DNA from: a phage
Assembly (NCBI GenBank): GCA_025823825.1
Contig: GCA_025823825.1_4720.1
Length of the DNA stretch: 64,000 nt
Strand: one strand, 5' to 3'
Of the stretch, positions 6,265-48,735 are shown piece after piece (within the stretch, counting starts at the first letter, position 1; each line of letters opens with the position of its first letter). Position numbers and translations under genes: made by a program. The notes below the pieces were generated by a model that worked only from the letters and a program-made list of their open reading frames with translations, had not been told where the DNA came from and did not search any database.

Positions 6265-6269
6265 CTCTC

Positions 6270-6602: not shown

Positions 6603-6607
6603 GTTAT

Positions 6608-6976
6608 TTATTTATCGGGGTCTGGAAAATAGTAAAATCGCCAATACAACATAGAAATCGCATTTCTTATTCGATTCGCACGAACACGGCGTCCGAGAAA
6701 GGACTTGTAGCAAGAATCGCAATCCATAAACAACTCATGGCTCGATTTCATCAGAACCACGATATCTCTTATATACGAATTGCAGTACTCGATAAACGGG
6801 TCTGTATCGTACGTATATTTCCTCGCACTACCTATCCCCAACTCTCTATTTAACTCACGACAATTTATCATGAGCTTCACATAACGGATAAGCCGAACGA
6901 AGTCACGTAAATTACGATTAAACCAATATCGATACCAAAATGACTGTATACTCCGAACAGTTCTATTTAACTTCAT
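6608..6976 (-). CDS. hypothetical basic protein
   Basis: 122 aa, R/K/W-rich. Confidence 0.4.
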   Translation of the reverse strand: MKLNRTVRSIQSFWYRYWFNRNLRDFVRLIRYVKLMINCRELNRELGIGSARKYTYDTDPFIEYCNSYIRDIVVLMKSSHELFMDCDSCYKSFLGRRVRANRIRNAISMLYWRFYYFPDPDK

Positions 6977-7604
6977 TGATACCTTCTATTAGTTGTACAG
7001 CAACTTCTTTTTCGGTGCTATAAAAGAACTTGCGGTGGAACTGAACAAGAAGCTTTTCGAATTTACATTGAACGATCTTTTTGCGTTCGATATGACCCAG
7101 GGAGAGCAAAGCACCCATGCAACGTACCGCTTGTTCGAGAACTTGTTTCGCGGTATCGTGATCGTCCGGTAACGGTAAATCTTCCTCATCGTCTTTAGCG
7201 ATAAGGCGTCTGATGATGTTATCGATACGTATCTCATCACCGTTAATAAAAGCCCCCTTCTCCCAGTCATCGAATCGTTGATGGATTCGACGTTGTAAGT
7301 TGGCTCTGTCTTCCATTAACTCTTTCAACTGGCTTTCTAAGTGGGATACGGTACGGCGGTCGGTTTCAGTGAAGTTTTCCGATTCTTTGTACCACCAATC
7401 ATTACGCGATAGTAAATCGTTAACGCGCGAAATCGTCCGACGACACTCACTAACAAGCCCATCACCATTCGGTAGCTCCGTGCCGAAATAGCATTTGTAT
7501 TTATAACGCATAACACGGATTAAACGTTTCGCTAGAAAACCTTGCCTTTCCAGTTTCTTCTTCAGTTGTGTGTATTTCTCTTCTTTTGTTTCCATTAATT
7601 CCAT
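6963..7604 (-). CDS. hypothetical protein
   Basis: 213 aa ORF. Confidence 0.45.
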   Translation of the reverse strand: MELMETKEEKYTQLKKKLERQGFLAKRLIRVMRYKYKCYFGTELPNGDGLVSECRRTISRVNDLLSRNDWWYKESENFTETDRRTVSHLESQLKELMEDRANLQRRIHQRFDDWEKGAFINGDEIRIDNIIRRLIAKDDEEDLPLPDDHDTAKQVLEQAVRCMGALLSLGHIERKKIVQCKFEKLLVQFHRKFFYSTEKEVAVQLIEGINEVK

Positions 7605-7993
7605 GATGTTGTACCTCGTTCAGCAATCAGGAGAGTCGTGGTTGTGCTTTTCACTAATCTATTAAAGTCTTGATATATCCGCCTGAGGGATGGTTTCAAA
7701 TCACAATAACGGCTGAAATAAACCTTCAAGTCATCTTTTGTCACAGTCTCCGTATTTATTTTCGTAGAAACACCGAGATCGATAAACTCTTTTCTTAATT
7801 GGGATAATTCATCAAGAAGTCGATGGTGGCTTAGATAAATAACAGATTTATCGGATAACAACTCGCCGGTTATCCGGCTCTGGCGTTCATCGAAATATTG
7901 GAGCCGCCATTCAATTCGCTTACGTAATTTATCAAGTAAATCAACAAAAGCGGTATAGCTGTTAACGGCTAGGTTAACTTGACTCGTTATCAT
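7595..7993 (-). CDS. hypothetical protein
   Basis: 132 aa ORF. Confidence 0.4.
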   Translation of the reverse strand: MITSQVNLAVNSYTAFVDLLDKLRKRIEWRLQYFDERQSRITGELLSDKSVIYLSHHRLLDELSQLRKEFIDLGVSTKINTETVTKDDLKVYFSRYCDLKPSLRRIYQDFNRLVKSTTTTLLIAERGTTSWN

Positions 7994-8340
7994 TCCACTT
8001 TCTCCGTTATATGCTTTAAACTGTTACGTATACTTTTCAATCGATGGTTAAATCCGGAACGATAACATTTCCGTACATCCCGTGCTGCTCGCGCTTTATT
8101 CGCCTGATGAAGCTGCTCATTCACCTGCGACGCTATACGTAAACGCTCTAATAAAGACCTCAACCGAACGACAACCAACGGCTGTTCTTTTACCTTCTCT
8201 AGTTTGAGTAAAGAGTCAATATGAAACTTTATTTCGATAATCTGATTCCTGTTTTTGCGGTACTGATGAATATACCAACATCGACGAAAATAGGCGATGT
8301 TTAGCATCGGGTAGATCCTTTTCAACGCTACCTCCAACAA
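7990..8340 (-). CDS. hypothetical basic protein
   Basis: 116 aa ORF, ATGA-type overlap with upstream gene. Confidence 0.4.
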   Translation of the reverse strand: MLEVALKRIYPMLNIAYFRRCWYIHQYRKNRNQIIEIKFHIDSLLKLEKVKEQPLVVVRLRSLLERLRIASQVNEQLHQANKARAARDVRKCYRSGFNHRLKSIRNSLKHITEKVE

Positions 8341-8525
8341 TACATCGGATTAGGCGCTTTATGGTATTTATAGATACCTACTTTCTTCTGTCTGCCTTTA
8401 CCCGGGCCTCGTTTAATACGTTTGTTATAAACACGATCCAAATATCGAGTGGTGATACATCGGGATAAATACACCGGATCGATATATTCTAGCGTACCTG
8501 CTTCTGTCACTTCGAGGCATTGCAT
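8328..8525 (-). CDS. hypothetical small basic protein
   Basis: 65 aa ORF. Confidence 0.3.
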   Translation of the reverse strand: MQCLEVTEAGTLEYIDPVYLSRCITTRYLDRVYNKRIKRGPGKGRQKKVGIYKYHKAPNPMYCWR

Positions 8526-8551
8526 GCGTAACCTCTCTTTTCTCTAAAAAG

Positions 8552-8755
8552 TCAGTCCAACATAAGCCACGGCATCGCTTTCGCGATAGAATCCACCGCA
8601 GCATTTGCGATCCTTCGTTCAGTCGTCGGTACCACATGTGCAACGAACCGTTTCCCTTTATTGCAACCTTTCTTGTGTTTTCCTTTGACTAAACGAACAC
8701 CGATCATGTCATTGATAACATGATTTAGTATGTAGCGCTGTAGAGAATTAATCAT
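8552..8755 (-). CDS. hypothetical small basic protein
   Basis: 67 aa ORF. Confidence 0.3.
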   Translation of the reverse strand: MINSLQRYILNHVINDMIGVRLVKGKHKKGCNKGKRFVAHVVPTTERRIANAAVDSIAKAMPWLMLD

Positions 8756-8924
8756 CGCTTTTACTCCAGGCAGAGAAGATTCTCGGTTTTAGTTCTATCT
8801 GTCCGCATATCCAGGTGTATCTCCATTTACCTTTACGAGGACCTTTCTTATTTTTAACACCTATCAGAATACGATAGGGGTATGACCAAGCCATTCTAAA
8901 CTCCTAAAATAAATCTCAATGTTC

Positions 8925-9185
8925 TTAATGCAACCGCTTCTCGAAGTCGGTTTTAAGAAGCATCATTCTTTCATCGATAGTATCCAACGCTTTCAGTAAT
9001 GATTTACGTTGTTCTTTCGTAAGCATTTCAGCTCGAAGACGTTCGTTAATTCCCGCTTTAAGCTGTATAGGAAGGGCTTGTGTAAGCACGCTATCAGCTT
9101 CTATCTCGTAACTATTTTTCGGTGGGGGTAATGCTGCAATAACACCAACGAGATAACAACCGACAATAGTTATCCGTTTATCCAT
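8925..9185 (-). CDS. hypothetical protein
   Basis: ORF-track start at 9251 is a GTG inside a hairpin; first ATG at 9185-9183 (MDKRITIVG) used instead. Confidence 0.35.
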   Translation of the reverse strand: MDKRITIVGCYLVGVIAALPPPKNSYEIEADSVLTQALPIQLKAGINERLRAEMLTKEQRKSLLKALDTIDERMMLLKTDFEKRLH

Positions 9186-9265
9186 TGCTTCTAACAGTTC
9201 AGAACTTACTTCATCCACGATAGTCCTCCGTATTAGGGTGGGCGTACCCACCCTCAGTTGTTACT

Positions 9266-10285
9266 TTACACCGCCACCTTGGCCTTGATAGCGGGGTGTG
9301 ATTGATATCCGACGAACACAAAGTCTTCGTAACGGTAATCCGTAATACTTTCTGGTTTACGTACGATTGTTAGCTTCGGTAATGGATACGGCTCACGACT
9401 AAGTTGTTCTTTAACCTGTTCGAAATGGTTGTGATAGATATGACAATCTCCACCTGTCCACACGAACTCACCAACGTCCATATTCAACTGCTGGGCAAGC
9501 ATGTGTGTTAACAACGAATATGAGGCGATGTTGAATGGTGTTCCAAGCAGTACGTCCTGCGATCTTGCTAGCAGCATACACGACAAGGCACGTGTTGGTA
9601 CGTTATGCGCATTCAACCAAAGTTCCGTTTCACTGTGTCGTACATCATCCGTAACCCACTGGGTTCTTAATACGTCGTTGCGTTGAACATAATCAACACG
9701 TTCATCGATCGTGAGCTCGTGGGTATAGAACTGATAGAAACTGTGGCATGCGGGAAGCGCCATATCGTCTAAATCACCTACGTTCCATGCGCTAACGATG
9801 ATTCGTCGAGAATCAGGATCTTCTTTAAGCTGGCGCATCACGTTTGCAATCTGATCGTGATGTTTAACATACACGAGGTGTTTTAGCGTACCGTCATTAA
9901 GAATGCCGCAATACTCGTAACCACGCTGCATCAACTCACGAGTACGCTCTGTATCGTGCGGAACAACCACTTTGTAGTCTATCCATTCCCGCCACTGTCT
10001 ACCGTAAATCGGTCCTAGATTCCCTTCTTCGTCAGCCCACTCATTCCAGATACGAACACCGTTATCTTGAAGATACGCAACATTTGTGTCGCCGTTAAGA
10101 AACCAGAGCAGTTCGTGGATAACGCTCTTAAGGTGAATCTTCTTGGTGGTTACCAGAGGGAATCCTTTCTTCAGGTCAAAACGCATTTGACGTCCAAATA
10201 CGGAACGGGTACCGGTACCTGTACGATCGGCTTTATCGCGACCGTTATCCATGATGTCTTGCAAAAGGTCCAAATACTGTTTCAT
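9266..10285 (-). CDS. thyA: thymidylate synthase family enzyme (ThyA-like; dUMP-specific, possibly a hydroxymethylase)
   Basis: 339 aa; [19 protein letters not shown] (catalytic Cys), [15 protein letters not shown] (Asn, uracil-type), GGDCHIY; longer than typical ThyA. Confidence 0.8.
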
Positions 10286-19516: not shown

Positions 19517-20074
19517 TCACTCCATCCATACTTCTTCGTCGTAATGATTTTCTATCGCATTACGCCAAAAACGTACGGTGTCCAAACTAATCGGTGCATA
19601 AAAATGCTGATCAACGCCTACATTAAGTCCGTTGGCTTTCGCTAACATACAGCGATGAATATGACCGAATAAATTAAAGTAGCCTGGGTTTCTTTCGCTG
19701 GGCTTATGGCATAGCCAGTAGGATTCGTCATTGCTAATCGGCAACACCAACGGATGTTCATAAACCGCAGCAAACCCCATACCGAGCAATTTATCACGCC
19801 ACGCTTCAAAGCTTAATCCTGTCGCTTTGTATGCGTCCTCGTCCCAATTCCCCAATACCAATTGAACCTGGATATCAGAACGAATGGCTTCCACGAACTC
19901 GAACTTACCCCAATCACCTAAATGCCACAACACACTGTTCTTTGGAAGCTTGTTGATGGCTTTCAGCATATGCTGGTTCATATCGGCGACGCTTGCGAAC
20001 GGACGGCGTGAATACGTCCACGTACGCTCGCTATCAAAATGGGTATCCGACATAAAGAAGATGGGTGGGGTCAT
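19517..20074 (-). CDS. calcineurin-like metallophosphoesterase (Ser/Thr phosphatase-like)
   Basis: 185 aa; FMSDTHF, GDWG, GNWD, GHIH motifs in canonical order. Confidence 0.8.
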   Translation of the reverse strand: MTPPIFFMSDTHFDSERTWTYSRRPFASVADMNQHMLKAINKLPKNSVLWHLGDWGKFEFVEAIRSDIQVQLVLGNWDEDAYKATGLSFEAWRDKLLGMGFAAVYEHPLVLPISNDESYWLCHKPSERNPGYFNLFGHIHRCMLAKANGLNVGVDQHFYAPISLDTVRFWRNAIENHYDEEVWME

Positions 20075-26477: not shown

Positions 26478-28052
26478 TTACAATTCAAAATCTTCATCGA
26501 TAACACGCTGGGTAAGCACTTTGTCGCTGAAGAACTCCACCTTGCGCTGATGGTATTTACGGTGCGCTTCGATAGAAGTACATACCAGATACCAGAACGT
26601 TGGCGTCATTCCTTCAAACTTTCCTTTCAGCTGACGCAGTCGTCCCAACACCTGAATGTTACCGGTTCGTGACCCCATCGCTAATGTCATGAACGTCATC
26701 ACCAAGTCAGGAAGGTCGATACCTGTACCTGCCGATTTCACCGTTGTAACGCTAATATCGTTATCCAGCAAGACCATGAAGTCTTCTTCAGCAGTATAAG
26801 GACCGATTTCTAACTCAGGGATACGTTCACTGAGATAATGCGACAACGACTTACACATATCGACGGTTGCACAATACACCAGCATCTTCATACCTTCCTG
26901 ATACTGGTTCATGAAACCCTTGATAATAACGGTATAGATGAAGTTAAAATACGCGAGTTTGAGTTGCTTGTTCTTCATGATAGACTGTTCGAATATCGTG
27001 TGCGAATAAGCTCCACCAAACCCTTTGTATCTGACTTTATCTGTACTGCGTAGTCGGTACGTTACCGCATTTACCGCAATGTATTTCTTGTATTCGCCTT
27101 TCGCATAACGGGCTTCTTTCGGATACATCAAATACAGCATCTGTTCGATAAACGGATCATCGGATACCGCTGTTGCCGACAGATAAATGATTTCCGGAAT
27201 ATTGGCGTAACACTTGACCTTAAACAAGAAATGCAATGCTTCGTGACACTCGTCATGAATCAGCAAACCTATGCCGGTCTTTTCCCAAAACTCAGCGGGA
27301 TGAAAGGCATATGGCGCAACGCAGTTATTCTTCTCGTAGTCCGCAATATAACGTTGGAACATGTTCAAGGAGAACAATGCGATTTTGAAGTCGAGTTCAC
27401 CTTGTTCAACCAAGGTTTGAAACTCCAACATACTGTAACGAGGAATGTCGGGATGCGGTGGATCCTCCTTAGCGTTCCCGCGTATCTCGATAACGTCCCC
27501 TGGTTCCATCCCGAAGAAGTTCAGCAGTGAGCTTCGCCAACCTGGCATGTATCTCGGCGACAGAATGATACCCGTCCGTACACCGCGTCGGAAGGTGATC
27601 TCCTGCGACATGGCCGTTTTTCCTGACCCCGTTTGAGCGGTGTTTAGGCTCATTCTGAAGGGGGTATCCTTACCCCCGTCCATGTACTCCAACCATTCTT
27701 GCTGATCTTGACGCCATGGAAACTTCCATTTCTTTACGAACTCCACTTCTTTACCTGGTACCGGATCGTGATAGACGATTTCCAACCACTCTTTTCGTAT
27801 CCCTCGGGAAAAGATAAAATCCAAAAACGATTTCAACTGTTCACGGAGTAAGTATACCTCGCTATAATCGCTTCTTGCCGCGGCATACGTGTTTATGGTA
27901 TCGGTAACCATTCTCCGTGTACGAGGGTCACGCCGTTTCCTCAGATGCAAACAACGGTCTCGAAGGTAATGGCCGATAAGATGGGCAAATCGAAGTCCGT
28001 ATCCGCTCAGCCTCATGCCGTGCGAGAAGACGTCGATACGAGCTAACTTCAT
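26478..28052 (-). CDS. superfamily 2 DExH-box helicase
   Basis: 524 aa; AQTGSGKT, HDECHEA, SAT, QVLGRLRQ motifs. Confidence 0.75.
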   Translation of the reverse strand: MKLARIDVFSHGMRLSGYGLRFAHLIGHYLRDRCLHLRKRRDPRTRRMVTDTINTYAAARSDYSEVYLLREQLKSFLDFIFSRGIRKEWLEIVYHDPVPGKEVEFVKKWKFPWRQDQQEWLEYMDGGKDTPFRMSLNTAQTGSGKTAMSQEITFRRGVRTGIILSPRYMPGWRSSLLNFFGMEPGDVIEIRGNAKEDPPHPDIPRYSMLEFQTLVEQGELDFKIALFSLNMFQRYIADYEKNNCVAPYAFHPAEFWEKTGIGLLIHDECHEALHFLFKVKCYANIPEIIYLSATAVSDDPFIEQMLYLMYPKEARYAKGEYKKYIAVNAVTYRLRSTDKVRYKGFGGAYSHTIFEQSIMKNKQLKLAYFNFIYTVIIKGFMNQYQEGMKMLVYCATVDMCKSLSHYLSERIPELEIGPYTAEEDFMVLLDNDISVTTVKSAGTGIDLPDLVMTFMTLAMGSRTGNIQVLGRLRQLKGKFEGMTPTFWYLVCTSIEAHRKYHQRKVEFFSDKVLTQRVIDEDFEL

Positions 28053-36073: not shown

Positions 36074-37660
36074 TTAGAAGTTGCCTTTGGTAGTTACCGC
36101 ATCCACCAGGTTAAACAAATCAACACTCAGCTTATACACCTCCTGCTGGCTACGGTTGAGCAGCGGGCTGTATGCGGATGGGTTGATGTTCGGCATGGTG
36201 TACGGAATCGGTGCAGAGCCGTCAACGCTGATCTTGAACTGGCTGTCCAGGAACAGGTTAATCGCGCCGCTCACCATAACCGCATTCGGGTTGTTACCCA
36301 ACATGGAGGGTAGGATATTGGTAATCATGTCAGAACGCATTTGTTCAGCAGCACGGTTACAATCGTATCCTTTAATGAAAGGTACAGCGTCGGTAACCGC
36401 AACCGCCCACTGACCAGGCATGATACCGAGTTCTGGGTGACCATGGTTGTCAGCAATAAAACGGAACGACTCCAACATGCGGTACGTCATCGCAGCAGGC
36501 ATCATTGCAGCAAGCGATGAGCAATACAGCGTTGGATAATCGATCACGTCCCAGCTCTGGCTGTCGGTCGGCATCCAACCAAACTCGGTGGTTGCTGATG
36601 TACCGCGACGAGCTTCCACATACGGGAATAACGTTAAGACGTCACGGATATGTTCACCGAACATCCGTTTCATGTCAGCCCAACTCAGGCTACCGCTGAA
36701 AGCGAATCCTTCATCACGCATAATCGCACCGAATACCGGATGCGCGACCAGCGGTTCTTCACGAACAGCTTGAGCGGCTTCTACGTAAATATCCTCGTTC
36801 TCTGCGCTACCTGGATGAGACCCGCTTTCGTACGTCTGACGAATAGCCCCAACATTATCGAAGGCTTTTCTCAGATAGATGGTTGGGATGTTCGTATCGG
36901 CACTAGCTGGTTTGATTTTCTCTGTTGCGAAACACATTGCTGCTTCCACACCACGGAAAACCGGTTCCGGTTGCGGTGGGTAGGATGTACGATGAACCAC
37001 GTCAGCGTAGGCGGGATCGAACTGCTGCATTACGTTCTGCATGGCTGGGTCCATGAACTGGTTATCAAAACCACCATTGCCCACCCAACGTGCTGTCGAT
37101 GCATAAGTCAGTGTATCCTGAACACGAGTACTGAACTGAACATCGCGATTAACAGGGTCGTATGCACCGGTCAACAGGTTCGTTGCGTCCATCGGGGTTG
37201 CACGAACAATTTGCTTACCGAACATATCTGTCGTGGTTGTTTCGGTTACCTGGATTACGTTCGTGAAGAAGAACACCAGTTCATTCGGCAGATCGATAGC
37301 ACGCGTTGTAAACGCATCGAGGCTTACAGAATGGTCGGTGTATCCAGAAATGTAATGGACACGCTTGGTTCCTGGTGCAAGGGCCAAGGATTCTTCTACA
37401 GCCATCATGAAATGGAAACGACGTGTGCCCCAACCATTCGCAATCTCCGAAACCCCCTCAGGTTCTGCAGACTGCTGCAACAAACCGGTTGCAAGCTTGT
37501 TGATTGCTGATGGTGTTGTTGCCGTACCGAACCGCGTCGTGTTAATAAAGTCTTCGATGCTACGCATGCTATCTGCGTGGAATCGTAGTGGACGACGTTG
37601 TACGTTGTTGTACGGTGCGGTTTCAACCATCAGTATTTCACGAACATTCATCGGGATCAT
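36074..37660 (-). CDS. hypothetical protein
   Basis: 528 aa ORF, 1 nt after upstream stop. Confidence 0.55.
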   Translation of the reverse strand: MIPMNVREILMVETAPYNNVQRRPLRFHADSMRSIEDFINTTRFGTATTPSAINKLATGLLQQSAEPEGVSEIANGWGTRRFHFMMAVEESLALAPGTKRVHYISGYTDHSVSLDAFTTRAIDLPNELVFFFTNVIQVTETTTTDMFGKQIVRATPMDATNLLTGAYDPVNRDVQFSTRVQDTLTYASTARWVGNGGFDNQFMDPAMQNVMQQFDPAYADVVHRTSYPPQPEPVFRGVEAAMCFATEKIKPASADTNIPTIYLRKAFDNVGAIRQTYESGSHPGSAENEDIYVEAAQAVREEPLVAHPVFGAIMRDEGFAFSGSLSWADMKRMFGEHIRDVLTLFPYVEARRGTSATTEFGWMPTDSQSWDVIDYPTLYCSSLAAMMPAAMTYRMLESFRFIADNHGHPELGIMPGQWAVAVTDAVPFIKGYDCNRAAEQMRSDMITNILPSMLGNNPNAVMVSGAINLFLDSQFKISVDGSAPIPYTMPNINPSAYSPLLNRSQQEVYKLSVDLFNLVDAVTTKGNF

Positions 37661-37661
37661 T

Positions 37662-39248
37662 TTATTTTTTTCCTCTTAAATTTACTACGTGTTCATTTAA
37701 TCGAACAACTAATTGCACAAGTTGCTGACGGATATCTGCTGGACAAAGCATCAATCCTTTACGATCAGCTGGGACTTTCTCAAGGATTTCCGGGCCTGCT
37801 GCTGAAACATCCCAGTCCCATTCACAAAACGCATCGGCCACCATGTTAATACCGACAACCGGTAAAGTTGTACGTTCATCTTCATACATGGCGTGTGGAT
37901 ACAATTTATTGACAGTAATGATCTCCTGTGGTTTTAATTGGTGGATAATCTGATAAACATCGTCGCGTTTAACCTGGATACCTACGGTCAGCGCTGCCAG
38001 TTGAGGAAAACCCCAATGGTCTAATAAGCAAGCTGCAATCGCTAACGCTTTTGCTTGATGCACGGCTTCAATCGGTGCCAGACTTCTCGCCGGAAGATGG
38101 CTATCAAGCAACCATTGTGCCAGTGCTCGGCATCCACGGTTGATTGGTTTTAACTCAACGCTGTCATCGTGCTTAGCGTACGTGTATCCGTCGTAACGTT
38201 TTGCGATACGCGCATACATGTCTTCAACTTTACCGTAAGGTGCCGTTTCGTCGACGTCGTGTAACACACGTTCCATCTGGGTAAGATACGCGATGTCAAG
38301 AATGAGTACACGCGGTGAACGTTTATCTTTCACCATCAACGCATCAATCACGCCTTGACTGTCTTCATCTTGCGCGTTCCCTCGTGGGGTTTTCTCACGA
38401 ATCGGTCCGCTGAAACGTCGTTCCGTACAAAGGTTATTCACATAGCTAAAGATCAGTGTTACCAGATGCGTACAACTCACCAACACCCCATCTTTAACGA
38501 CAGGCTGTACGGCTTGGTCCAAGTCGCGTACGGCGAGACGGCGGACGATGGCTTGTGAACGCAACCAGCCGGGCACTTTCTCCGTCGACATGTAATCCAC
38601 GGTCATCGACAGCGTGATCTTTTTATCACCCGTCTGTGCGCGGATATAGTCTTCCAGTCGGTCGTAAGCGGCGATATCATGAATGCGTGTTTTATACATC
38701 AACGACATAGCCACTTCTTCTTTACGGACTGTCCCGTACGTTTTCCCTGCGTCAATCAGAAACTCTGCCCAAATCGGCACCATCAGACGGACATAGATCG
38801 CTAACGCTGTTAACTCAACGTAATCATTTCGTAAATAGGTTTTCTCGGGTATATCGTCCTCACCTAATGTTGTTTTCATGTCCGGTGGTAATTTTACCCA
38901 ACCTGGGGTATTACACAACGCCAGAATCTCTTCATACACAACCGGTTTGTAAATCTCACCAACAGCGCGACTCAACTCCTCCATTTGTTGTTGTGGAGCA
39001 ATGTAGTTATCCATCGCTTCACGTGCTTTAACGAACCCTTCGAAGATGTCGTCAATTCGACGTGGGTTCTTTTGTTCTATCCAGGCGAGATACTTGTTAA
39101 TCTCCCGCATCTGATTGCTAGCCATATCCCCATCAATCTTGATGTAACCCTGGCCTGAAAATTCCACAGTACGTCCATCACGATGTTTGATGAGATAGTG
39201 ATCCAGCTTTTCTTTTCCTTGCGTCGTAATGACGGGCACTATGTGCAT
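37662..39248 (-). CDS. hypothetical protein
   Basis: Start set at ATG 39248 (MHIVPV) with AAGAGG upstream; ORF-track N-terminus is leader. Confidence 0.55.
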   Translation of the reverse strand: MHIVPVITTQGKEKLDHYLIKHRDGRTVEFSGQGYIKIDGDMASNQMREINKYLAWIEQKNPRRIDDIFEGFVKAREAMDNYIAPQQQMEELSRAVGEIYKPVVYEEILALCNTPGWVKLPPDMKTTLGEDDIPEKTYLRNDYVELTALAIYVRLMVPIWAEFLIDAGKTYGTVRKEEVAMSLMYKTRIHDIAAYDRLEDYIRAQTGDKKITLSMTVDYMSTEKVPGWLRSQAIVRRLAVRDLDQAVQPVVKDGVLVSCTHLVTLIFSYVNNLCTERRFSGPIREKTPRGNAQDEDSQGVIDALMVKDKRSPRVLILDIAYLTQMERVLHDVDETAPYGKVEDMYARIAKRYDGYTYAKHDDSVELKPINRGCRALAQWLLDSHLPARSLAPIEAVHQAKALAIAACLLDHWGFPQLAALTVGIQVKRDDVYQIIHQLKPQEIITVNKLYPHAMYEDERTTLPVVGINMVADAFCEWDWDVSAAGPEILEKVPADRKGLMLCPADIRQQLVQLVVRLNEHVVNLRGKK

Positions 39249-39300
39249 AACAACCTCTTTTCGCGGTTCCCTGTTAAAACGTCTTCTGTGACGTCTACCA

Positions 39301-39324
39301 CAAAGGTAATATAAGCGTGAATAA
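39301..39324 (-). promoter_or_regulatory. conserved promoter-like motif, copy 2 (minus strand TTATTCACGCTTATATTACCTTTG)
   Basis: TATATTAC core about 55 nt upstream of ATG 39248. Confidence 0.45.
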
Positions 39325-39452
39325 TTTTGGATTCCGGCTGAGTTATCGCTCAGCATGCAAGGCATCCCGCCGAAGCGAGACACCTTGCACTAACGGAAAA
39401 TATTCGCGTTACCTTCTGAATCGAAGACTCAGAATGCGATGCTAAAGCATTA

Positions 39453-40241
39453 TTAGAACGCTAAGCCATCAAAGGCTACGGACGGATCATCATCGTCATT
39501 TGCGCTTGGCGCATCCCAACGGGTATCAGGGGCCGCTGAAGCCGAACTTGATGCGTTAGAGTTACCGTTGTACTGGCCGTTACCAGCATTACGGTTACCG
39601 CCGCCGTTGTTATTGTTACGGTTATAGCTATTGTTGCCATTACTTACGCTACGGCTTTCACCGTCGAAATTGGTTGCGAGGATGCTCGGCAACACCGCAC
39701 GATGAATACGTACAAATTCCAACGCACAAAGCGGAGAAACAACCCCGATCTGTAAAGGTTGCCCAGACTCATCAACCAGAGCGTGGAAGCGCGGTGGCTT
39801 GAATACGAATTGGATGTTCGGTTTTTGGTACGCTGTTACGGCGATATATACCGAACCATCATCATTCTTACCAACCCATGTTGTACTTTCGGTAATCTGT
39901 TTCTTCTTACCTGGGTTATTGCGATCGTCAATAACCTTTTCGTTCTTCATCGCAAAGCGCTGACCTGGTTTACCCTTAGCAACCTGCTCGAGGATCGCAA
40001 GCAGGTTATAGAACGCGTATGAGCTCATGCGTGCCCAAATGCTTTCAGCGCGACCCTGCTGGTCTTTACGACCGGTGTAAACCGTGATACGCGGTTGATT
40101 CTTAGCAACGCTAATTTTCAATGAGGGGATTGAATTACCGCCCTCAACCTTTTCGTCCGCCCACAGTTTCCAGTTGTTGTCGTCATACGCTGTAGGAATA
40201 ATGTTTCCTTGTGGTTTACTGCCCGAATTCCAATTGCTCAT
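39453..40241 (-). CDS. single-stranded DNA-binding protein-like
   Basis: 262 aa; structured N-terminal part, N/G-rich linker, acidic tip ...ANDDDDPSVAFDGLAF. Confidence 0.5.
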   Translation of the reverse strand: MSNWNSGSKPQGNIIPTAYDDNNWKLWADEKVEGGNSIPSLKISVAKNQPRITVYTGRKDQQGRAESIWARMSSYAFYNLLAILEQVAKGKPGQRFAMKNEKVIDDRNNPGKKKQITESTTWVGKNDDGSVYIAVTAYQKPNIQFVFKPPRFHALVDESGQPLQIGVVSPLCALEFVRIHRAVLPSILATNFDGESRSVSNGNNSYNRNNNNGGGNRNAGNGQYNGNSNASSSASAAPDTRWDAPSANDDDDPSVAFDGLAF

Positions 40242-40314
40242 TTTCAGCCTCGTTACGTAGTGTGAATCAATTTCTGGTTCAGATGATAGTTAATATTAGT
40301 TAAAAATTACAGCC

Positions 40315-41112
40315 TCAGCGGAACATGTCCAACAGAAAACGTTTTGCGAAGGGGTCACGTAACTGGTTGACGCCAAAGCGCGTACGGTCTTCCGTTGTTA
40401 ATGGATTCCACTGACTCTGTTTCGCAAGATCTAACAGCATCCTTTTTATTTTCACCGGCCCACTGTTAAACTGTACGGCTTGGTCACCGAACGTTCCCAA
40501 TGTCATCTTTGTAAATGGAAGATTCGCAACCTCTGGACGATCCCCACCAGTAAGTTTAGTCGACCACTGATGTTTTCGTTTCAAGGTTCCGGTATGGCTC
40601 TCCACCAAAATAAGTTCACCAAAACCGGTTCTTGCCAACAAGTCAGAAACATAGTGCGTGGTGATATACGATGTCTTGGTTATCGTGGGTAATTTACAAT
40701 CCATCGATTCGATATTAGGGAGTCGATCTACAGACGCCATCAACCCACGATAAAGTGTAGCGAGTCCTTTTTGTTTTTCGGTGTGTGGCTCCTTATGTAT
40801 AGCGTGCGGATAAACACGCTTTATTGACGCATAGGTTGGCGCATATATCCGCAAACGAATATGGGGAACGAGTTCATTCACCAGCTGCCTTAGCTGCAGT
40901 AACTCGTTTTGAAAATCCCCTGTTATCATCGATAACGGTAATTTATGTTGTTCAACGTCTTCAAAGCTTTCAACGAAATTGCGTGCTAAAGTACGCAGGT
41001 TGAACAACCAATCCATCGGTGTTTCTGGCTGTTGCTGCACGGCTGATAATGTTGCTGACGTCCCTACCGATAAAGGATAATCACCTAACGTGCGGGCGTA
41101 CATATTGCTCAT
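40315..41112 (-). CDS. hypothetical protein
   Basis: Start set at ATG 41112 (MSNMYAR) with AAGGAG upstream. Confidence 0.45.
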   Translation of the reverse strand: MSNMYARTLGDYPLSVGTSATLSAVQQQPETPMDWLFNLRTLARNFVESFEDVEQHKLPLSMITGDFQNELLQLRQLVNELVPHIRLRIYAPTYASIKRVYPHAIHKEPHTEKQKGLATLYRGLMASVDRLPNIESMDCKLPTITKTSYITTHYVSDLLARTGFGELILVESHTGTLKRKHQWSTKLTGGDRPEVANLPFTKMTLGTFGDQAVQFNSGPVKIKRMLLDLAKQSQWNPLTTEDRTRFGVNQLRDPFAKRFLLDMFR

Positions 41113-41131
41113 ACCCCACAACTCCTTCTTA

Positions 41132-42274
41132 TCATGGCAACGTATCAAGCCAAGCAGAAACCTTTAAGGCATCAACGTTCGGGTATTTATTACGAATGCG
41201 TTCGACCAACAAACGCTTAACGTTGTCCTTTGTCAAGTCTCCACCTTTCTCGATAACGTTATTGACAAAACTGTTCTTTAATAGCGACTGGTTGTTCTTG
41301 GCATCCGTTTTAATTGACCAGACAAAACCTGGATACAAAGAAGGGATAGAACGAAACGTTTTCGCCGCATCGTCTTCCTTATCGCAGCGTATTCGAATAT
41401 GATCGCCCTTCTTCAATGGAGCCAATTCCCGTTCCAACACACGGACAATTTCATCTCCAACAAGACCATGCAGTTTTATCGTCTTATAGACATCTGCTTT
41501 CTTGTTCTCAACAAATTCCCACTGGTCGTTAAACGATTCTGTTAACGTATAACGGAGATACCCCTTTGGACCTTCTTCGCCGTGCGCCAAGCGACCGAAC
41601 GAACCGCCAACCATGATACGTCCTTTCTGGGATTGTAAGTGAATATGTCCGCTCACGATCCATCCCTGGGTCTTCTCCACCATTGCGTTATACGCATCGC
41701 TGCTATGAACACATGTCGCTTTTAACGCTTCTGGTGGAAGCTGATATTCGAACGCACCGTGCATCAGAATGAAGTCCGGCGATCCCTTCTCATCAATAAG
41801 TCGGTTCACGGCCGACAACGTCACATCCGGATCGTGGCTGTAGTTATCTGGAAGATAAAGCACTTTTAAACCAAAGTCTTCATCAACCATGCAGAGGTCA
41901 TCGTAATAACGAACTTTCGCTCCTATCTCCATGACCTCGTTCTGTTCAACGAACCACTGACTTTGCTTCTGGTCGTGTAAATTGGTACCCTCAAGAAAGA
42001 TCAACGTAATATCATGTTTTCTCGCATACCGTAACAACCAGGTACCCCAGGCACGAACAGCAACCACATCACTCGTCACAAATGTCGTAATGCGATCGAA
42101 GACATCGCCACTGAACGTAATCACATCAAGCAGCGCAGGATCTTCTTTTGTAATGTAATAACGCAGTTGGCTAATCAGGTTTACTGTCGGTGTTTGACGA
42201 TGGATAAAGTGAATATCCGACAAATTGATTCCACGTAATACCCCAGGCGTTTTATTTCGACTGAAGTCTCGCAT
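41132..42274 (-). CDS. Mre11/SbcD-like metallophosphoesterase nuclease
   Basis: 380 aa; LSDIHF, SGDVFD, GTNLHD, MHGAFE, SGHIH in order. Confidence 0.7.
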   Translation of the reverse strand: MRDFSRNKTPGVLRGINLSDIHFIHRQTPTVNLISQLRYYITKEDPALLDVITFSGDVFDRITTFVTSDVVAVRAWGTWLLRYARKHDITLIFLEGTNLHDQKQSQWFVEQNEVMEIGAKVRYYDDLCMVDEDFGLKVLYLPDNYSHDPDVTLSAVNRLIDEKGSPDFILMHGAFEYQLPPEALKATCVHSSDAYNAMVEKTQGWIVSGHIHLQSQKGRIMVGGSFGRLAHGEEGPKGYLRYTLTESFNDQWEFVENKKADVYKTIKLHGLVGDEIVRVLERELAPLKKGDHIRIRCDKEDDAAKTFRSIPSLYPGFVWSIKTDAKNNQSLLKNSFVNNVIEKGGDLTKDNVKRLLVERIRNKYPNVDALKVSAWLDTLP

Positions 42275-43056
42275 CAGAATTCCTCTAGGTTGCTGCTGCT
42301 AATAGTCCCCGTCGTAGACGGCATGTTTCTACTGCTCGCCGACGCTGTTGTTGAAGAAGTTCTGGCTAGATTCAATCCGTTTAATAACCCACGCTCTTTT
42401 ACCGTACGACGTGAACCATCACGAACGTCGTAAAGGGGTACGTTATAATGGTCAAAAATCCGAAGCCATTGCACGTAATCAGCAACAACATGGTCTTTGC
42501 TTTCATTCGGGGCAAAGCGATCAAGCTGATGGTCGACGTAAGCTTTAGCGCTTTCAGGATTGAAGTTATACTGTCGACGTGCTTTGTCCACCATCGCGAG
42601 GAAACATGTGTTGGGGTCACGATTGATGTATGAACGTGTCCGGATAAAGATAGCCGGTACCGTAAACAGAACCTTGTTGTTATTCCCATCAGCAACGATG
42701 TTAACCGCACGATGTGGTTGGCCTGCTATCTTGCACCAATCGTGAACAATGGTGCTATTACTCAGCATCTCCGCGTATTCAGGATCCTGCGAAAACATTC
42801 CTGCGAACGGATACAAGAAATGTTTAACAAACAGCGACTCAGGCAGGATGTTGGGACGCGTCATCTCCTGTAAACCTTTTCGTAGAAGCTCGCTGTTGTC
42901 TACCAGCTCCTGCCACATGTCCGGTCGTGTTTTCGGGATGGACGGATCCTGAGCGCGGCGAATGCGCTCTTCCTCATTTACAACCACTACCCCAGCCGGA
43001 TACCCCAATAAATCCGTTCCTTCGCTAACGTTGCTGTTAGTTTGGCGCGCCTTCAT
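42274..43056 (-). CDS. hypothetical protein
   Basis: 260 aa, no Walker A. Confidence 0.45.
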   Translation of the reverse strand: MKARQTNSNVSEGTDLLGYPAGVVVVNEEERIRRAQDPSIPKTRPDMWQELVDNSELLRKGLQEMTRPNILPESLFVKHFLYPFAGMFSQDPEYAEMLSNSTIVHDWCKIAGQPHRAVNIVADGNNNKVLFTVPAIFIRTRSYINRDPNTCFLAMVDKARRQYNFNPESAKAYVDHQLDRFAPNESKDHVVADYVQWLRIFDHYNVPLYDVRDGSRRTVKERGLLNGLNLARTSSTTASASSRNMPSTTGTISSSNLEEF

Positions 43057-43444
43057 TTACTTCCTCCTGCCACTTGATAAAATTACCACGCTCGGATCGC
43101 AGAACACCGCCCAAATCGTACGATATACCTTTCTCTGTGACAATCCCACCAATCTGGAGATCAACACGTTCCGTCGTCGGATCGATATACTTGACACGGA
43201 CTTTCAATTCCACGCGATCGTAATAACGCATTAAATAATCATACAACATCCGGTATGTCGCATCTTCCAATTTGGGTGCGCTATACTGCGATGTTGCAAT
43301 GAGGTACGGTAGTGAAACGATGGAACCTTGATAGCAATACGACTGGGAATAATTCGATATTGCAAAATTGGTCATTAACCCATCCAGCTTTTTTCCCGAC
43401 GCGGTTAAAAAGCTCGACAGTCCCGGTAACGGATTCGATGCCAT
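43037..43444 (-). CDS. hypothetical protein
   Basis: 135 aa ORF. Confidence 0.4.
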   Translation of the reverse strand: MASNPLPGLSSFLTASGKKLDGLMTNFAISNYSQSYCYQGSIVSLPYLIATSQYSAPKLEDATYRMLYDYLMRYYDRVELKVRVKYIDPTTERVDLQIGGIVTEKGISYDLGGVLRSERGNFIKWQEEVNEGAPN

Positions 43445-43457
43445 GAGGAACTCCTCT

Positions 43458-43907
43458 TTAAGCGTAATTCATTCCAACCAATCTATCGTAGTTAGGCATA
43501 TGCCCTAACTCCAGTTCGACAGGCATGGATACATTGGTGCGCGGCGCGTAAAATGTTCGCGTATGCATATCGATATACCCGCAGTCCAAATAAACAATAT
43601 CGGACAACTCCACCGGATGTTTAGGTGCGGGAATCTTTAGTCGGTTATAACACTCAAGCTGCCACCAGGCATGAAAAAAGTTATTGTAAGCGTACGATTT
43701 ACTGTTAGCAATTTTAAGACCGTAGATCACCCATAACGCCGCCATGAAGTTGGTCGCGTTAATTCGCATCGGTTGTTCATTATTGAGCATGTACGTGTAG
43801 GTAAACAACGGTGTGTTACCATCACCGAAACGTCCAACCAAGGTATTGTTTGTGCGTTCGACCTCAAAGGAAAAATGCTGGCTGCTATTGCCATCAAAAT
43901 GGATCAT
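43458..43907 (-). CDS. hypothetical protein
   Basis: Start set at ATG 43907 (MIHFDG) with GAGGAG upstream. Confidence 0.4.
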   Translation of the reverse strand: MIHFDGNSSQHFSFEVERTNNTLVGRFGDGNTPLFTYTYMLNNEQPMRINATNFMAALWVIYGLKIANSKSYAYNNFFHAWWQLECYNRLKIPAPKHPVELSDIVYLDCGYIDMHTRTFYAPRTNVSMPVELELGHMPNYDRLVGMNYA

Positions 43908-44026
43908 TCCGTTCTCCTCAAGCTTTTTCATTTCATAGAGTGGTGGAAATTCGTAGAAAGTTACAAAAATAAAAAAGAATGGGCAGCCCCTCCCCACCCG
44001 AAGGTAGGGAGAGACCGCAAATATAC

Positions 44027-44512
44027 TTAAACCAATGCTGCGATAACGTCGTTAACATTACGGCCTCGCAACTCTGCCGCTAAACGAATAACTTCATCCA
44101 GGGAACGGGTTGTACGAATCTTGGCCACTTTCCAATTTTCAGGATACTGTTCGAAGTTAAGCAACCAAGTCATTACCTTTGCTTGTTCCATACCGTTGAG
44201 TTTGATTGTCGTGCGCGGATTGGCTTTGAACCACTTCTTGCTCAGCTGCGCCATACGGCGAACAGGGTAAGCGTAAGCGCGAGTCCAGTCTTTGGACAGA
44301 TTGTCGAGTAATTCACAGTAGCTGTTGTCGTAGTCTTTGTTGATACGACGTAATAACCAGTTGGCGGTCATCTGATAAAGTTTATCATCTTCACGTAACC
44401 GCATACCCGCTACTGCTAAATAAATGATAAGACCTGCGCCCAGGATGAGAGACAGGATAAACAGGATTTGGGTTTCTTGTGCTAAAGTCATTTTACTATC
44501 CTCGGATTTCAT
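44027..44512 (-). CDS. membrane-anchored protein (single N-terminal TM helix)
   Basis: 161 aa; ILFILSLILGAGLIIYLAVAG helix then soluble domain. Confidence 0.5.
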   Translation of the reverse strand: MKSEDSKMTLAQETQILFILSLILGAGLIIYLAVAGMRLREDDKLYQMTANWLLRRINKDYDNSYCELLDNLSKDWTRAYAYPVRRMAQLSKKWFKANPRTTIKLNGMEQAKVMTWLLNFEQYPENWKVAKIRTTRSLDEVIRLAAELRGRNVNDVIAALV

Positions 44513-44577
44513 TAGGATTTAATTTCCAATATAAGGGCAATGTGATATGCCTTATACAGTCGATTGATGTTGTACAT

Positions 44578-44601
44578 CACCTAAGTAATATAGCCGTGAA
44601 A
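44578..44601 (-). promoter_or_regulatory. conserved promoter-like motif, copy 3 (minus strand TTTCACGGCTATATTACTTAGGTG)
   Basis: About 65 nt upstream of ATG 44512. Confidence 0.5.
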
Positions 44602-44610
44602 AATGTTGGA

Positions 44611-45408
44611 TTAACGTGTTCTCCTATCACGATGCGTATACGACTGAAGACCGATGTCCATATGCGGTAACGTCAGCGTCTGCCAGATCTGTCGTGCATA
44701 GCGATCGAGCGTATGATCGTCAGTAACACAATCGACGGGTTCGATGAGGTGAGTCGTATACTGGCTTTTCTCAGAGAAAGGTTCGATGTTAGCTGTATCT
44801 CCTAATCCGCTTTTCACCGTGAAGACAAGACGTGTGACTATCATCGCCTTATGTTGCTGTTCGTTATAACGAAGGCTGCGGTATACGGCATAGCTTCCTC
44901 CTTTTAGGCTTCGGGTATAACGAAGGTCGGAGGTCGTCTCGGAAATCTGATACAGCATCCAGTCCAACGTATCGCGCCAGTACGCATCATCCACATCAGG
45001 AACTGTAATACCATATCGCGTAGGCAGCAGTTCTAAAAGCAATTTATAAAGTCCGCGACGCAAGCCATGCTCTTCTGTTTCCGATAAACCGTTTCCAACA
45101 TAACGTGAAATACGCGTACGTAAATACGTACGGATGAACATATTCGCCATCAGTGTTTTCACTCTGCTACTTGTATCCTCAAAGCGATCAACGCTGAAAC
45201 TCGTTTCAATCAGCCGTCCATTAAAATACAATGCGGCAACATACATCGCATTACTGCTATCACGTTCAATGTTTAAACGACCGCAGATATTGGCTGCGTC
45301 GTTCATGGTAAATTCTAATTTATCGTGTTCGATACGATAGATAATATCCTCTTGGGTTGCTAGGCTCGCAATACGACGATAGCCCGGAGAAGTACGTTTT
45401 ACACTCAT
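44611..45408 (-). CDS. hypothetical protein
   Basis: Start likely ATG 45408 (MSVKRT, GAGGA upstream) or 45447. Confidence 0.5.
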   Translation of the reverse strand: MSVKRTSPGYRRIASLATQEDIIYRIEHDKLEFTMNDAANICGRLNIERDSSNAMYVAALYFNGRLIETSFSVDRFEDTSSRVKTLMANMFIRTYLRTRISRYVGNGLSETEEHGLRRGLYKLLLELLPTRYGITVPDVDDAYWRDTLDWMLYQISETTSDLRYTRSLKGGSYAVYRSLRYNEQQHKAMIVTRLVFTVKSGLGDTANIEPFSEKSQYTTHLIEPVDCVTDDHTLDRYARQIWQTLTLPHMDIGLQSYTHRDRRTR

Positions 45409-46378: not shown

Positions 46379-46727
46379 CAGCATGAGTCGCTACCTCATG
46401 CCCGCAGCTTTACCTGCAGCTTCCGGTGTTACCGGAATGTCCAGAATACATCTTATCCATATTCCAAATGGAACGTAGGACTTCCGCGCTGGATCTCGCT
46501 TGAGACCACGTATTCGTTGAACGTTCTCCTGAACGGAGCTTCGCTGCTGATCGAACATTGTCATGTACGGTAGGCGTCCCCGAAGGGATTGTCATTGAAG
46601 CCGCGTACATCCGCTACCTTGTTTCTACCTTATCGGTTCCTCTTACGAGGCGTAGCGGCCTTAGCCCTTCCCAGCAATTCACGGAATCCAAGCTCTTCCT
46701 TTCGGAAGGCAGGGCCTATGATTAAGC
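46379..46727 (-). ncRNA. group I intron C (ORF-less), boundaries approximate
   Basis: Minus-strand P/Q/R/S-like elements AATTGCTGGGAAG, GATCAGCAGC, GTTCAACGAATA, AAGATGTATTCT; ends in G before exon 4. Confidence 0.5.
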
Positions 46728-46737
46728 ATCCCCGTCG
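46728..46737 (-). CDS. proposed 10-nt micro-exon 3 (C GAC GGG GAT, completes F and encodes DGD)
   Basis: Inferred from frame restoration, not observed. Confidence 0.4.
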
Positions 46738-47113
46738 CTGTTATCGACTATATCTTCATCCTCGTTGCGAGGAGTCTCCCGTTTTGGTCTGTGTTTAACA
46801 GAGCCTACTCTACTCGACATCGCGTCTTTCGATAGTCTGTGAGCACACATCTTAACGAACATTCGTGGATTCCTAAACAGGTGAACGTTCTTGTTGAGAT
46901 GCTTCGCTGCGGATTATTCCCGTCCTACCTCTTTTACCCTACCCAGTTCATTACGCTGGCCCTCATCTGTGTCACCACGATGAGTTGGTGTGTAGTCCGA
47001 TTACAGAAACTTCCCGTCAATTAGAGAGTTTTAACTACGTTCCTGTTACCAGAAACCAGATCCCGACGGTATCAATAAATCAACGTAAGTTATTGATTTA
47101 ATTGAAAAAACTG
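46738..47113 (-). ncRNA. group I intron B (ORF-less), boundaries approximate
   Basis: Minus-strand AATTGACGGGAAG (P), AATCCGCAGC (Q), GCTCACAGACTATCG (R), AAGATATAGTCG (S) in canonical order; GGTAGGGTAAAAG P5-like. Confidence 0.6.
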
Positions 47114-47126
47114 AAATCTGCATTAT
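47114..47126 (-). CDS. proposed 13-nt micro-exon 2 (AT AAT GCA GAT TT, completes Y and encodes NAD)
   Basis: Joining exon 1 ...AAA GGG T to this gives MILKG-YNADF; preceded by G, ends in U. Confidence 0.4.
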
Positions 47127-47492
47127 CTTAATCTTCAGTATGGTTCGCTACTCCATACCCGTACGTCATGTACTGCTTACGTCTTTCACGTAAGAAGAGA
47201 CTATATCTTTCACCCTCAGCATTATCTGGTCGGGGCTCCCATTTCGGCGGTCAGATGACCGGTGGTTTCCCACGCCGCTTGGCCCTAACGCCCGTAAGCG
47301 ATAGTCGTTGAGCGCATCTCCGTTCTGGAGACTTCGCTGCGGATTCCCCAATCCTTGCCGCTTTTACCATACCTGAATGATTAGTTCAGCCCCACGCTCT
47401 GTTCCCAGGCGTGGTTGGTGGACAAGGCTCTAAGTAGGTTCCCGCATTAGAGAGTTCTGCGTGACAACATTTCTGCGTTACTGGGCCTAACG
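47127..47492 (-). ncRNA. group I intron A (ORF-less), boundaries approximate
   Basis: Minus-strand TAATGCGGGAACC (P), AATCCGCAGC (Q), GCTCAACGACTATCG (R), AAGATATAGTC (S); GGTATGGTAAAAGCG P5-like; GCCC near 5' end can pair with exon GGGU. Confidence 0.6.
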
Positions 47493-48735
47493 ACCCTTTC
47501 AAGATCATCACGCTTAACCCGATGGTGTTATCCTGCGGATCGCGTTTAACCTTGGTGATTTCAAGACATTGGTTACTGCTTCGGTCAAGTGATGGGTTTC
47601 GAACAAAGCCACACACAATCCCATCGAACGGTGTATCAGCAATAAGCTCATCGTGCAGCTCGCTCATCATTGGATGATAATTACGGACATGTTCCGCAAC
47701 GAACGCACGTGCTGCTCTCGGTGAATAACCACGATGGAATAACTTGGATTGGATATGTTCTTTATTGGTTAAAGTAAATGGTGCGTATGGGAAATGCAGA
47801 TGATAATAACGATGGTTCGCTGTTATCGAACTGATTACGGTACGCGTGGTGAATGGATGTAATGTACCTAATATGTTTTTACGTGTGATACCTTTCTTCT
47901 TACCAATGAACTCATCGAAAATTGCTGCGTGGTATTGCAGTAGCTTCAATTGCACTTTCGCCATCCAGTTTTCTTTCTTTCTGGCGCTCAAAGGTGTTGT
48001 TGGGTGATAGATACTGTTCAACGTACCAATAGCATCGATCGCACCTTCCATTTTGCTATCTGCATAACGACCGGTTGGCGTATTCTCGATAACGAACATC
48101 ATGGCCGCAGGAAAGCTGATATACTGGCTGAAGAACTTATCACGATGGATACGGATGAATTCTCGTAGCGTGTCAACTTTCTCCGTGTTCTTCGGTCCAC
48201 GTAACGTAGGTCCTTTATACAAGATCTCCATTATGCGATCGAAGTTCTGTATAAAGCTATTTACGCCGCGACGTATCCCGAATACATCGAATTGCTGCTC
48301 CAGATAGTTCTTGAGTTCGATGGGTCGTTTTACATTTGGACGGTAACTGGCATCAATGAGCCACGTCATCGTTTCAAAGCTTTTGATATTCAACTCGCTT
48401 GCCAGCACGAGATGGACCAACGGGTTAATGAACGCATCAATTCCTTCAGGAACACGCGCCCAAACCGTCGAACGAATCTCCTGTTCTGCCGGGTAGGTCA
48501 CGACCGTTTTACAGTTTGGACACACCGTGCCGAGTAGCTCACCACGATTGTAGAAACCACAACCACATTGTGGTGTGATATCCAACGTATCGCTGGAGTA
48601 AACACGGGTGATAAAACTGTTTAATTTCTTCTTCTCTTCGACGACTTTTGTATCGTAATCATTCAACAAAATCGGCGTAAAAGGAAGTTCTGCGAGCTGT
48701 CTATCGAAACTCACGATATCGAGCATGATGGCCAT
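47493..48735 (-). CDS. RNA polymerase beta' N-terminal subunit, exon 1
   Basis: Zinc ribbon CGCG...CPNC, GRYADS, KNILGTLHPFTTRTVIS, RNPSLDRSSNQ in beta' order; ORF ends just before DFDGD would be expected; 35-aa ORF tail is intron read-through. Confidence 0.65.

Follow-up and report, generated by a model that had tools for sequence, protein, structure and literature searches.

The gene at positions 41132-42274 (minus strand) of the DNA analysed here, a phage-derived stretch of 64,000 nucleotides (contig GCA_025823825.1_4720.1, referred to below as the window), encodes a putative nuclease of the SbcD/Mre11 family. With a probability of roughly 0.8, this protein serves as the nuclease in a phage-encoded complex of the Mre11-Rad50 (SbcCD) type, the ATPase subunit of which would come from a distant gene block and belong to the Goslar gp012/phiKZ gp165 family. 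A first-pass annotation of the window, made from its letters alone, had pointed to the lack of an adjacent Rad50/SbcC gene and had suggested that the enzyme may act alone, pair with a distant partner, or use a novel one. The comparisons described below speak for the distant partner, and the other two options are not favoured. The missing adjacent partner is a matter of gene order, and the separation of SbcC and SbcD is a known, clade-wide property of the phiKZ-like phages, which makes the arrangement ordinary rather than new.

The window is closely related to Escherichia phage vB_EcoM_Goslar (NC_048170.1), a jumbo phage of the Chimalliviridae that forms a phage nucleus and has a genome of 237,307 bp. 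The DNA identity to Goslar is 98.5% for window positions 39000-45000, and 98.3% in a wider comparison over 15.7 kb. The window corresponds approximately to Goslar 121.5-185.5 kb, and its gene content includes chimallin, PhuZ, a DNA polymerase and several split RNA polymerase subunits. Goslar gene numbers are used in the following for the genes of the window.

Family, fold and active site of the SbcD-like protein

The open reading frame (ORF) 41132-42274 starts with ATG and encodes 380 amino acids. Its product has the same sequence as Goslar gp178 (100% identity), labelled 'hypothetical protein' in the Goslar record, and corresponds to phiKZ gp065 and to the Chimalliviridae core gene cg8. The number should not be confused with that of phiKZ gp178, which is a subunit of the virion RNA polymerase and unrelated to the Goslar protein. 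The ORF matches PHROG 100, 'SbcD-like subunit of palindrome specific endonuclease', with E=1.8e-40. The Pfam Metallophos model scores 14.8 bits, under its cut-off, a search of NCBIfam with the ORF returned nothing, and a phmmer search of the PDB with the single gp178 sequence gave 0 matches. Single-sequence searches are thus uninformative for this protein, and profiles are needed. A profile built from an alignment of 78 homologs, which share about 30-35% identity with the window protein, has 16 matches in the PDB, each of them an Mre11 or SbcD protein. T. maritima Mre11 (2q8u) scores best, at 1.2e-9, and P. furiosus Mre11, E. coli SbcD and human MRE11 are also among them.

The predicted structure points in the same direction. 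An AlphaFold2 model of gp178 built on the alignment has a mean predicted local distance difference test score of 92.5 and a predicted template modelling (TM) score of 0.83, and when it is compared with the PDB by Foldseek, the first 35 matches are without exception Mre11/SbcD, led by one at 1.5e-14. Structures of Mre11/SbcD that comprise core and cap align with the model over approximately 330-360 columns, with target-normalised TM values of 0.63-0.75. The model consists of a metallophosphoesterase core (about residues 1-245) and a capping-like beta domain (about 250-325), followed by a disordered linker (332-344) and two helices (352-363 and 369-376). Full-length Mre11 chains of Mre11-Rad50 complexes align with it over about 400 columns. 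As modelled, this layout resembles that of an Mre11 with a Rad50-binding helix-loop-helix. By profile and fold, gp178 is a protein of the SbcD/Mre11 family, which upholds the assignment made in the first-pass annotation. The gain for annotation is small: the 'hypothetical protein' gp178 of Goslar can be renamed with confidence as an SbcD/Mre11-like nuclease.

The same data bear on the idea that gp178 might be some other metallophosphoesterase, such as an LpxH-like pyrophosphatase or a protein or nucleotide phosphatase, that has been mis-called SbcD. One homolog cluster does carry the JGI name 'UDP-2,3-diacylglucosamine pyrophosphatase LpxH', and LpxH structures form the next-best fold class in the Foldseek search. 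However, they follow at a distance of about eight orders of magnitude, with E of about 4e-6 and TM of about 0.35, compared to 1.5e-14 and 0.63-0.75 for Mre11. Moreover, none of the 16 profile matches in the PDB lies outside Mre11/SbcD, and LpxH, unlike Mre11, does not match the model in its capping-like second domain and its C-terminal helix pair. A mis-called phosphatase is therefore extremely improbable.

The first-pass annotation had counted all five phosphoesterase motifs. This is correct for motifs I, II, IV and V, which are canonical and invariant among the 78 homologs (D20 and H22 in motif I, G56, D57 and D60 in motif II, H172 in motif IV, and G209, H210 and H212 in motif V), and the residues of which align with the corresponding residues of T. 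maritima Mre11. For motif III, it needs a caveat. The canonical form of this motif is G-N-H-D/E, in which the Asn is a metal ligand and the His a catalytic residue. Compared to GNHD, the motif of the phiKZ-type SbcD proteins is longer by two inserted residues, and G96, T97, H100 and D101, and with them the His-Asp pair, are invariant in the 78 homologs. The motif reads GTPSHD in most of the family and GTNLHD in the window protein (codons 96-101, window 41972-41989). The column of the canonical Asn is occupied by L99 here and by Ser in most homologs, and an Asn, N98, is found one residue earlier. The N98-L99 pair, where most phiKZ-like homologs have P-S, is confined to the Goslar lineage. The non-canonical form of motif III throughout the family may be a new observation.

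A motif III that departs from GNHD in the whole family could also be read as a sign that gp178 is a catalytically dead scaffold of metallophosphoesterase fold, like the B subunits of eukaryotic DNA polymerases. The sub-threshold Pfam Metallophos score would agree with such a role, and B-subunit chains of polymerases delta and zeta are indeed among the weaker fold matches. Against this stands the invariance of D20, H22, D57, D60, H100, D101, H172, H210 and H212 in all 78 sequences, which at only about 30-35% identity is expected from purifying selection on a metal site. In addition, the Mre11/SbcD matches are better than those to the polymerase B subunits by at least ten orders of magnitude, and the phiKZ homolog matters for plaquing (PMC12571901). 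We therefore regard a dead scaffold as very unlikely.

A distant SbcC gene and the separation of the pair

A search for an SbcC/Rad50-like gene elsewhere in the genome, as the first-pass annotation had advised, leads to gp012 of Goslar, the close relative with 98.3-98.5% DNA identity. This gene lies outside the window, at Goslar 7499-9955, encodes 818 amino acids and is annotated 'putative SbcC-like protein, COG0419'. The protein matches PHROG 77, 'SbcC-like subunit', with 1.9e-74, and scores 39.8 bits with Pfam SMC_N, for which the cut-off is 40. Its motifs comprise a Walker A (GSNGSGKS), a signature-like SKGQKE, a Walker B (LMLDE) and an H-loop (ISH), and a zinc hook CPKC is located centrally, at residues 402-405. 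In an alignment with six SbcC-like proteins of jumbo phages, which share 21-25% identity with gp012, the residues G35, N37, G38, G40, K41 and S42, the hook cysteines C402 and C405, S720, D749, E750 and H784 are invariant. A phmmer search of the PDB with the single gp012 sequence yields chance-level matches only. The top 11 PDB matches of the gp012 profile are Rad50 ATPase heads (best 3qku, 1.1e-8). Three Rad50 hook structures (5gox, 1l8d and 6zff) are matched weakly by the profile region around 370-460, with E of 0.01-0.04, and designed coiled coils are matched by the arms. Judged from these sequence features, gp012 is a predicted ATPase of the Rad50/SbcC type.

In Goslar, gp012 and gp178 are about 153 kb apart on the linear map, and about 81 kb the other way round the permuted genome. 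The gp012 gene is also present in two more Goslar-like IMG/VR contigs, with 99-100% identity, and in the IMG/VR contig for which the positions of both genes were determined (IMGVR_UViG_3300011560_000001) SbcC and SbcD are spaced by about 79 kb.

The unlinked pair recurs throughout the phiKZ-like phages. A tblastn search of 50,697 phage records detected SbcD-like sequences in 315 and SbcC-like sequences in 287 of them. By genus, the numbers of SbcD and SbcC records are nearly the same: 81 and 81 for Pseudomonas, 62 and 62 for Erwinia, 24 and 24 for Salmonella, 23 and 22 for Vibrio, 21 and 21 for Serratia, 19 and 19 for Aeromonas, 16 and 16 for Klebsiella, and 13 and 13 for Ralstonia. In every genome listed for both, a distance of tens to hundreds of kb lies between SbcD and SbcC, as in PhiPA3 (SbcD gp059 at 45.8 kb, SbcC gp190 at 176.1 kb) and 201phi2-1 (SbcD gp121 at 63.8 kb, SbcC gp250 at 180.7 kb). 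SbcD is anchored in the block that corresponds to phiKZ gp65-66-67-68-69. The separation extends to uncultivated viruses. A direct scan of IMG/VR with the SbcC alignment was swamped by the generic Walker A pattern and gave only 15 loci, and it was replaced by a test of the flanks of SbcD. For this test, contigs of uncultivated viruses provided 80 SbcD loci, taken with up to 10 kb per side (1.62 Mb in all). No SbcC-like sequence was detected within 10 kb of SbcD (0/80), either by tblastn with seven queries (E<=1e-3) or by profile hmmsearch (E<=1e-2). The membership of both proteins in their families, their co-occurrence and the conserved separation of their genes are thus matters of observation.

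The SbcC gene has one constant neighbour across the phages compared, a baseplate gene of the gp164 family, which is divergent from SbcC in Goslar, PhiPA3, 201phi2-1, Noxifer, PhiEaH1, RSL2 and Moabite. On the other side, Goslar 6054-9955 contains gp012, then gp011 (unknown), and then the RuvC-like resolvase gp010. The genes downstream of SbcC in PhiPA3, 201phi2-1, PhiEaH1 and Moabite are small hypotheticals.

The novelty that the first-pass annotation implied is not borne out by the published record. The SbcC and SbcD genes of phiKZ-like phages have been described as "drastically separated" (Thomas et al. 2016, PMC5105663), and the two proteins are near-universal in jumbo phages (PMC7824862). 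Both genes belong to the core genes of the Chimalliviridae (Prichard et al. 2023, PMC10299810, Table 3): cg8, a 'putative nuclease' in block 2, comprises Goslar gp178, phiKZ gp065 and RAY gp238, and cg44, a 'putative SbcC-like protein' in another part of the table, comprises Goslar gp012, phiKZ gp165 and RAY gp023. As a discovery, the main finding therefore matters little, because SbcD, the distant SbcC, their separation and their status as core genes are already documented.

The importance of both genes for phage growth is likewise taken from the literature. In SPN3US, the SbcC protein gp186, a homolog of phiKZ ORF165, is essential, and SbcD (gp27) has been inferred to be essential as well (Thomas et al. 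2016, PMC5105663). In phiKZ, antisense oligonucleotide (ASO) knock-down of 065 ('Nuclease', scored ++) and of 165 ('SbcC-like nuclease', scored +) impairs plaquing (PMC12571901), and orf165 tolerates zero transposon insertions (PMC12676376).

The proposed complex and its known counterparts

The physical complex, its DNA substrates and its localisation are what we infer by analogy. On the model of E. coli SbcCD and T4 gp46/gp47, the complex would contain two subunits of each protein, with the C-terminal helix pairs of SbcD bound to the base of the SbcC coiled coil. Driven by ATP, the assembly would hold DNA ends in a clamp and cut or resect them, and could in this way supply 3' tails to the phage recombinase. 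Such end resection may feed the repair of breaks in the phage genome and its recombination-dependent replication, and it would presumably take place inside the phage nucleus.

The closest counterparts are the SbcD and SbcC proteins of other phiKZ-like phages (phiKZ gp065 and gp165, SPN3US gp27 and gp186, PhiPA3 gp059 and gp190, 201phi2-1 gp121 and gp250). These are orthologs, with 31-35% identity to the window protein. The phages share the flanking core genes and the unlinked arrangement, and there is no difference of substance.

The cellular SbcCD and Mre11-Rad50 systems of E. coli, T. maritima and P. furiosus share with gp178 the fold (Foldseek 1.5e-14, TM up to 0.75), the metal-binding residues of motifs I, II, IV and V, and the motif III His. 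In the model of gp178, a helix pair occupies the position of the Rad50-binding helix-loop-helix, and the candidate partner resembles Rad50 in its ABC head, coiled coil and CxxC hook. Unlike the cellular enzymes, gp178 has a motif III with a two-residue insertion and without the canonical Asn, and its identity to the cellular proteins is limited to 13-19%. In E. coli, the two genes form the sbcDC operon (PMC5105663), whereas the phage genes are not in one operon. The proposed functional model is T4 gp47/gp46, a phage-encoded, essential end-processing complex for recombination-dependent replication (PMC5105663). Unlike in the phiKZ-type phages, the T4 genes are clustered, with two small ORFs between them (PMC5105663). 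T4 and phiKZ-type proteins have no similarity at the BLASTP level, and the coiled coil of the phiKZ-type SbcC is much longer (PMC5105663).

Several points weigh against the assignment of gp178 to an SbcCD-type complex with gp012. We found no direct evidence of a gp178-gp012 complex for any phiKZ-like phage, and the searched literature contains no report on a physical complex of phiKZ-like SbcC and SbcD, on its substrate specificity or on its localisation, nor one on Mn2+-dependent nuclease activity of a phiKZ-like SbcD. Of the two things that the first-pass annotation had named as speaking against a nuclease without a canonical partner, the Rad50-like gene elsewhere is thus present, but no report of complex formation was found for the clade. 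Furthermore, the SbcC of the window genome is extrapolated from Goslar and from the two other Goslar-like contigs. The ASO phenotypes of phiKZ 065 (++) and 165 (+) differ (PMC12571901), which could reflect knock-down efficiency or partly separate roles. Finally, with a motif III devoid of the canonical Asn, gp178 may have a metal site unlike that of the Mre11 enzymes characterised so far.

The FEN-fold neighbour and the surrounding genes

The gene downstream of SbcD (window 40315-41112, minus strand) corresponds to Goslar gp177, phiKZ gp066 and the core gene cg9, which is listed as 'hypothetical' among the Chimalliviridae core genes (PMC10299810). It begins 20 nt past the SbcD stop codon and is preceded by an AAGGAG site. 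A gp177-family gene is found downstream of SbcD on the same strand in all 80 uncultivated loci, and it is directly adjacent in 76 of them. The fold of gp177 is that of the flap endonuclease (FEN) superfamily of 5'-nucleases, with a PIN-like core and a helical DNA-binding fold, although the Foldseek support for it is weak (E=0.015). The family has five conserved acidic positions (23, 70, 157, 171 and 210) and six conserved basic ones, and position 23 is a Ser in the window phage. FEN enzymes have seven to eight catalytic carboxylates. The Pfam 5'-nuclease models (5'-3' exonuclease/XPG) match none of 58 members of the gp177 family at E up to 10, and the gp177 profile has no match in the PDB. In view of these negative profile searches, gp177 is called a FEN-fold protein here and is not filed as a member of the FEN family.

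It is possible that gp177 is an accessory nuclease, and a functional tie to SbcD can be put forward as a hypothesis. Tentatively, and with distinctly less confidence than for the SbcCD-type complex itself, we suggest that SbcD (cg8) and the adjacent FEN-fold protein (cg9, phiKZ gp66 family) may form a two-nuclease module for DNA end resection together with the distant SbcC. The Mre11-type enzyme would open the end, the Exo1/FEN-like 5'-nuclease would extend the resection, and motif III would represent an altered metal site adapted to this role. In a more radical and somewhat less probable version, SbcD would act mainly with gp177, independently of or in addition to the distant SbcC, and the module would resemble Mre11 with Exo1 in eukaryotes or Mre11 with NurA in archaea. 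The conservation of SbcC argues against a role of SbcD independent of Rad50. As core block 2 also holds ChmC, a subunit of the non-virion RNA polymerase (nvRNAP) and PicA, the adjacency of gp177 and SbcD need not mean a shared function, and is by itself weak evidence for a link. The count of conserved carboxylates in gp177, which is below that of canonical FENs and includes the position that is Ser here, the missing Pfam signal and the weak Foldseek match also count against a canonical 5'-nuclease partner.

In the searched literature, a flap endonuclease paired with Chimalliviridae was not found, and the assignment of a FEN fold to cg9 and its strict pairing with SbcD may be new. A FEN-type fold and constant pairing with SbcD would give an 'unknown' core gene a testable function, and the result could be of use for the study of DNA replication and repair inside the phage nucleus.

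Further downstream, the core block continues on the minus strand with gp176 (39453-40241, phiKZ gp067/ChmC family), gp175 (37662-39248 as annotated in Goslar, phiKZ gp068 family) and gp174 (36074-37660, by position of the phiKZ gp069/PicA family). The names of phiKZ 067-069 are taken from PMC12571901 (Table 1) and PMC12676376. BLASTP of the window proteins of this block (36074..40241) against PhiPA3 identifies 061 at 1.6e-14 and 062 at 1.7e-33. The three genes provide context, and none of them is an ATPase partner.

Upstream of SbcD lies gp179 (42274-43056, minus strand), which matches PHROG 5171, of unknown function, with 7.1e-10. Its stop codon overlaps the SbcD start by one base (TGATG, window 42274), with a GAGGAA ribosome-binding site upstream, and the overlap suggests translational coupling. 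The first-pass annotation had stated that neither flanking gene has a Walker A motif, and a motif scan agrees: the ORFs 42274-43056 and 40315-41112 lack not only a Walker A, but any GK[ST] tripeptide. Among the ORFs of at least 100 amino acids in the window, counted from the first ATG, the sole strict Walker A is that of a superfamily 2 helicase (26478-28052). As a protein without Walker A, from a PHROG of unknown function and without a BLASTP counterpart in the PhiPA3 block, gp179 was set aside as a partner of SbcD.

The window contains another phosphoesterase gene. The ORF 19517-20074 (minus strand) corresponds by position to Goslar gp157, annotated as 'metallophosphoesterase family protein' (COG4186), and would be a second, small phosphoesterase of the same phage, unrelated in size to SbcD.

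Goslar-like phages are apparently frequent among sequenced samples. In an index of public assemblies, the identical SbcD protein occurs in 171 blocks, and 41 of these blocks include contigs of more than 200 kb (near-complete genomes of about 236-239 kb). Six contigs that encode the identical SbcD protein have 96.8-98.3% nucleotide identity to the window, and none of them is its source. A 99%-identical gp177 cluster carries its name from 'Salmonella enterica' records, and Goslar-like phages may be turning up inside bacterial assemblies.

At the Rfam gathering threshold, the whole window gives 0 matches. Below the gathering score, two group-I-intron-like matches to RF00028 occur in tandem, at 46738-47104 (46.9 bits, E=1.9e-10) and 47177-47513 (32 bits, E=5.3e-6). 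Both are located within window 46385-47513 (minus strand), at the 3' end of the nvRNAP beta' gene (ORF 47386-48735). Compared to Goslar, the window is devoid of about 1.07 kb with the HNH endonuclease gp186 at this end of the gene, and has 368 extra bp (47127-47494), into which the beta' ORF reads, so that it comprises 449 amino acids compared to 423 in Goslar. Six other Goslar-like contigs have both elements, one, none (with an ORF of 434 amino acids), or one together with an HNH-like ORF. The variation looks like a presence/absence polymorphism of mobile introns.
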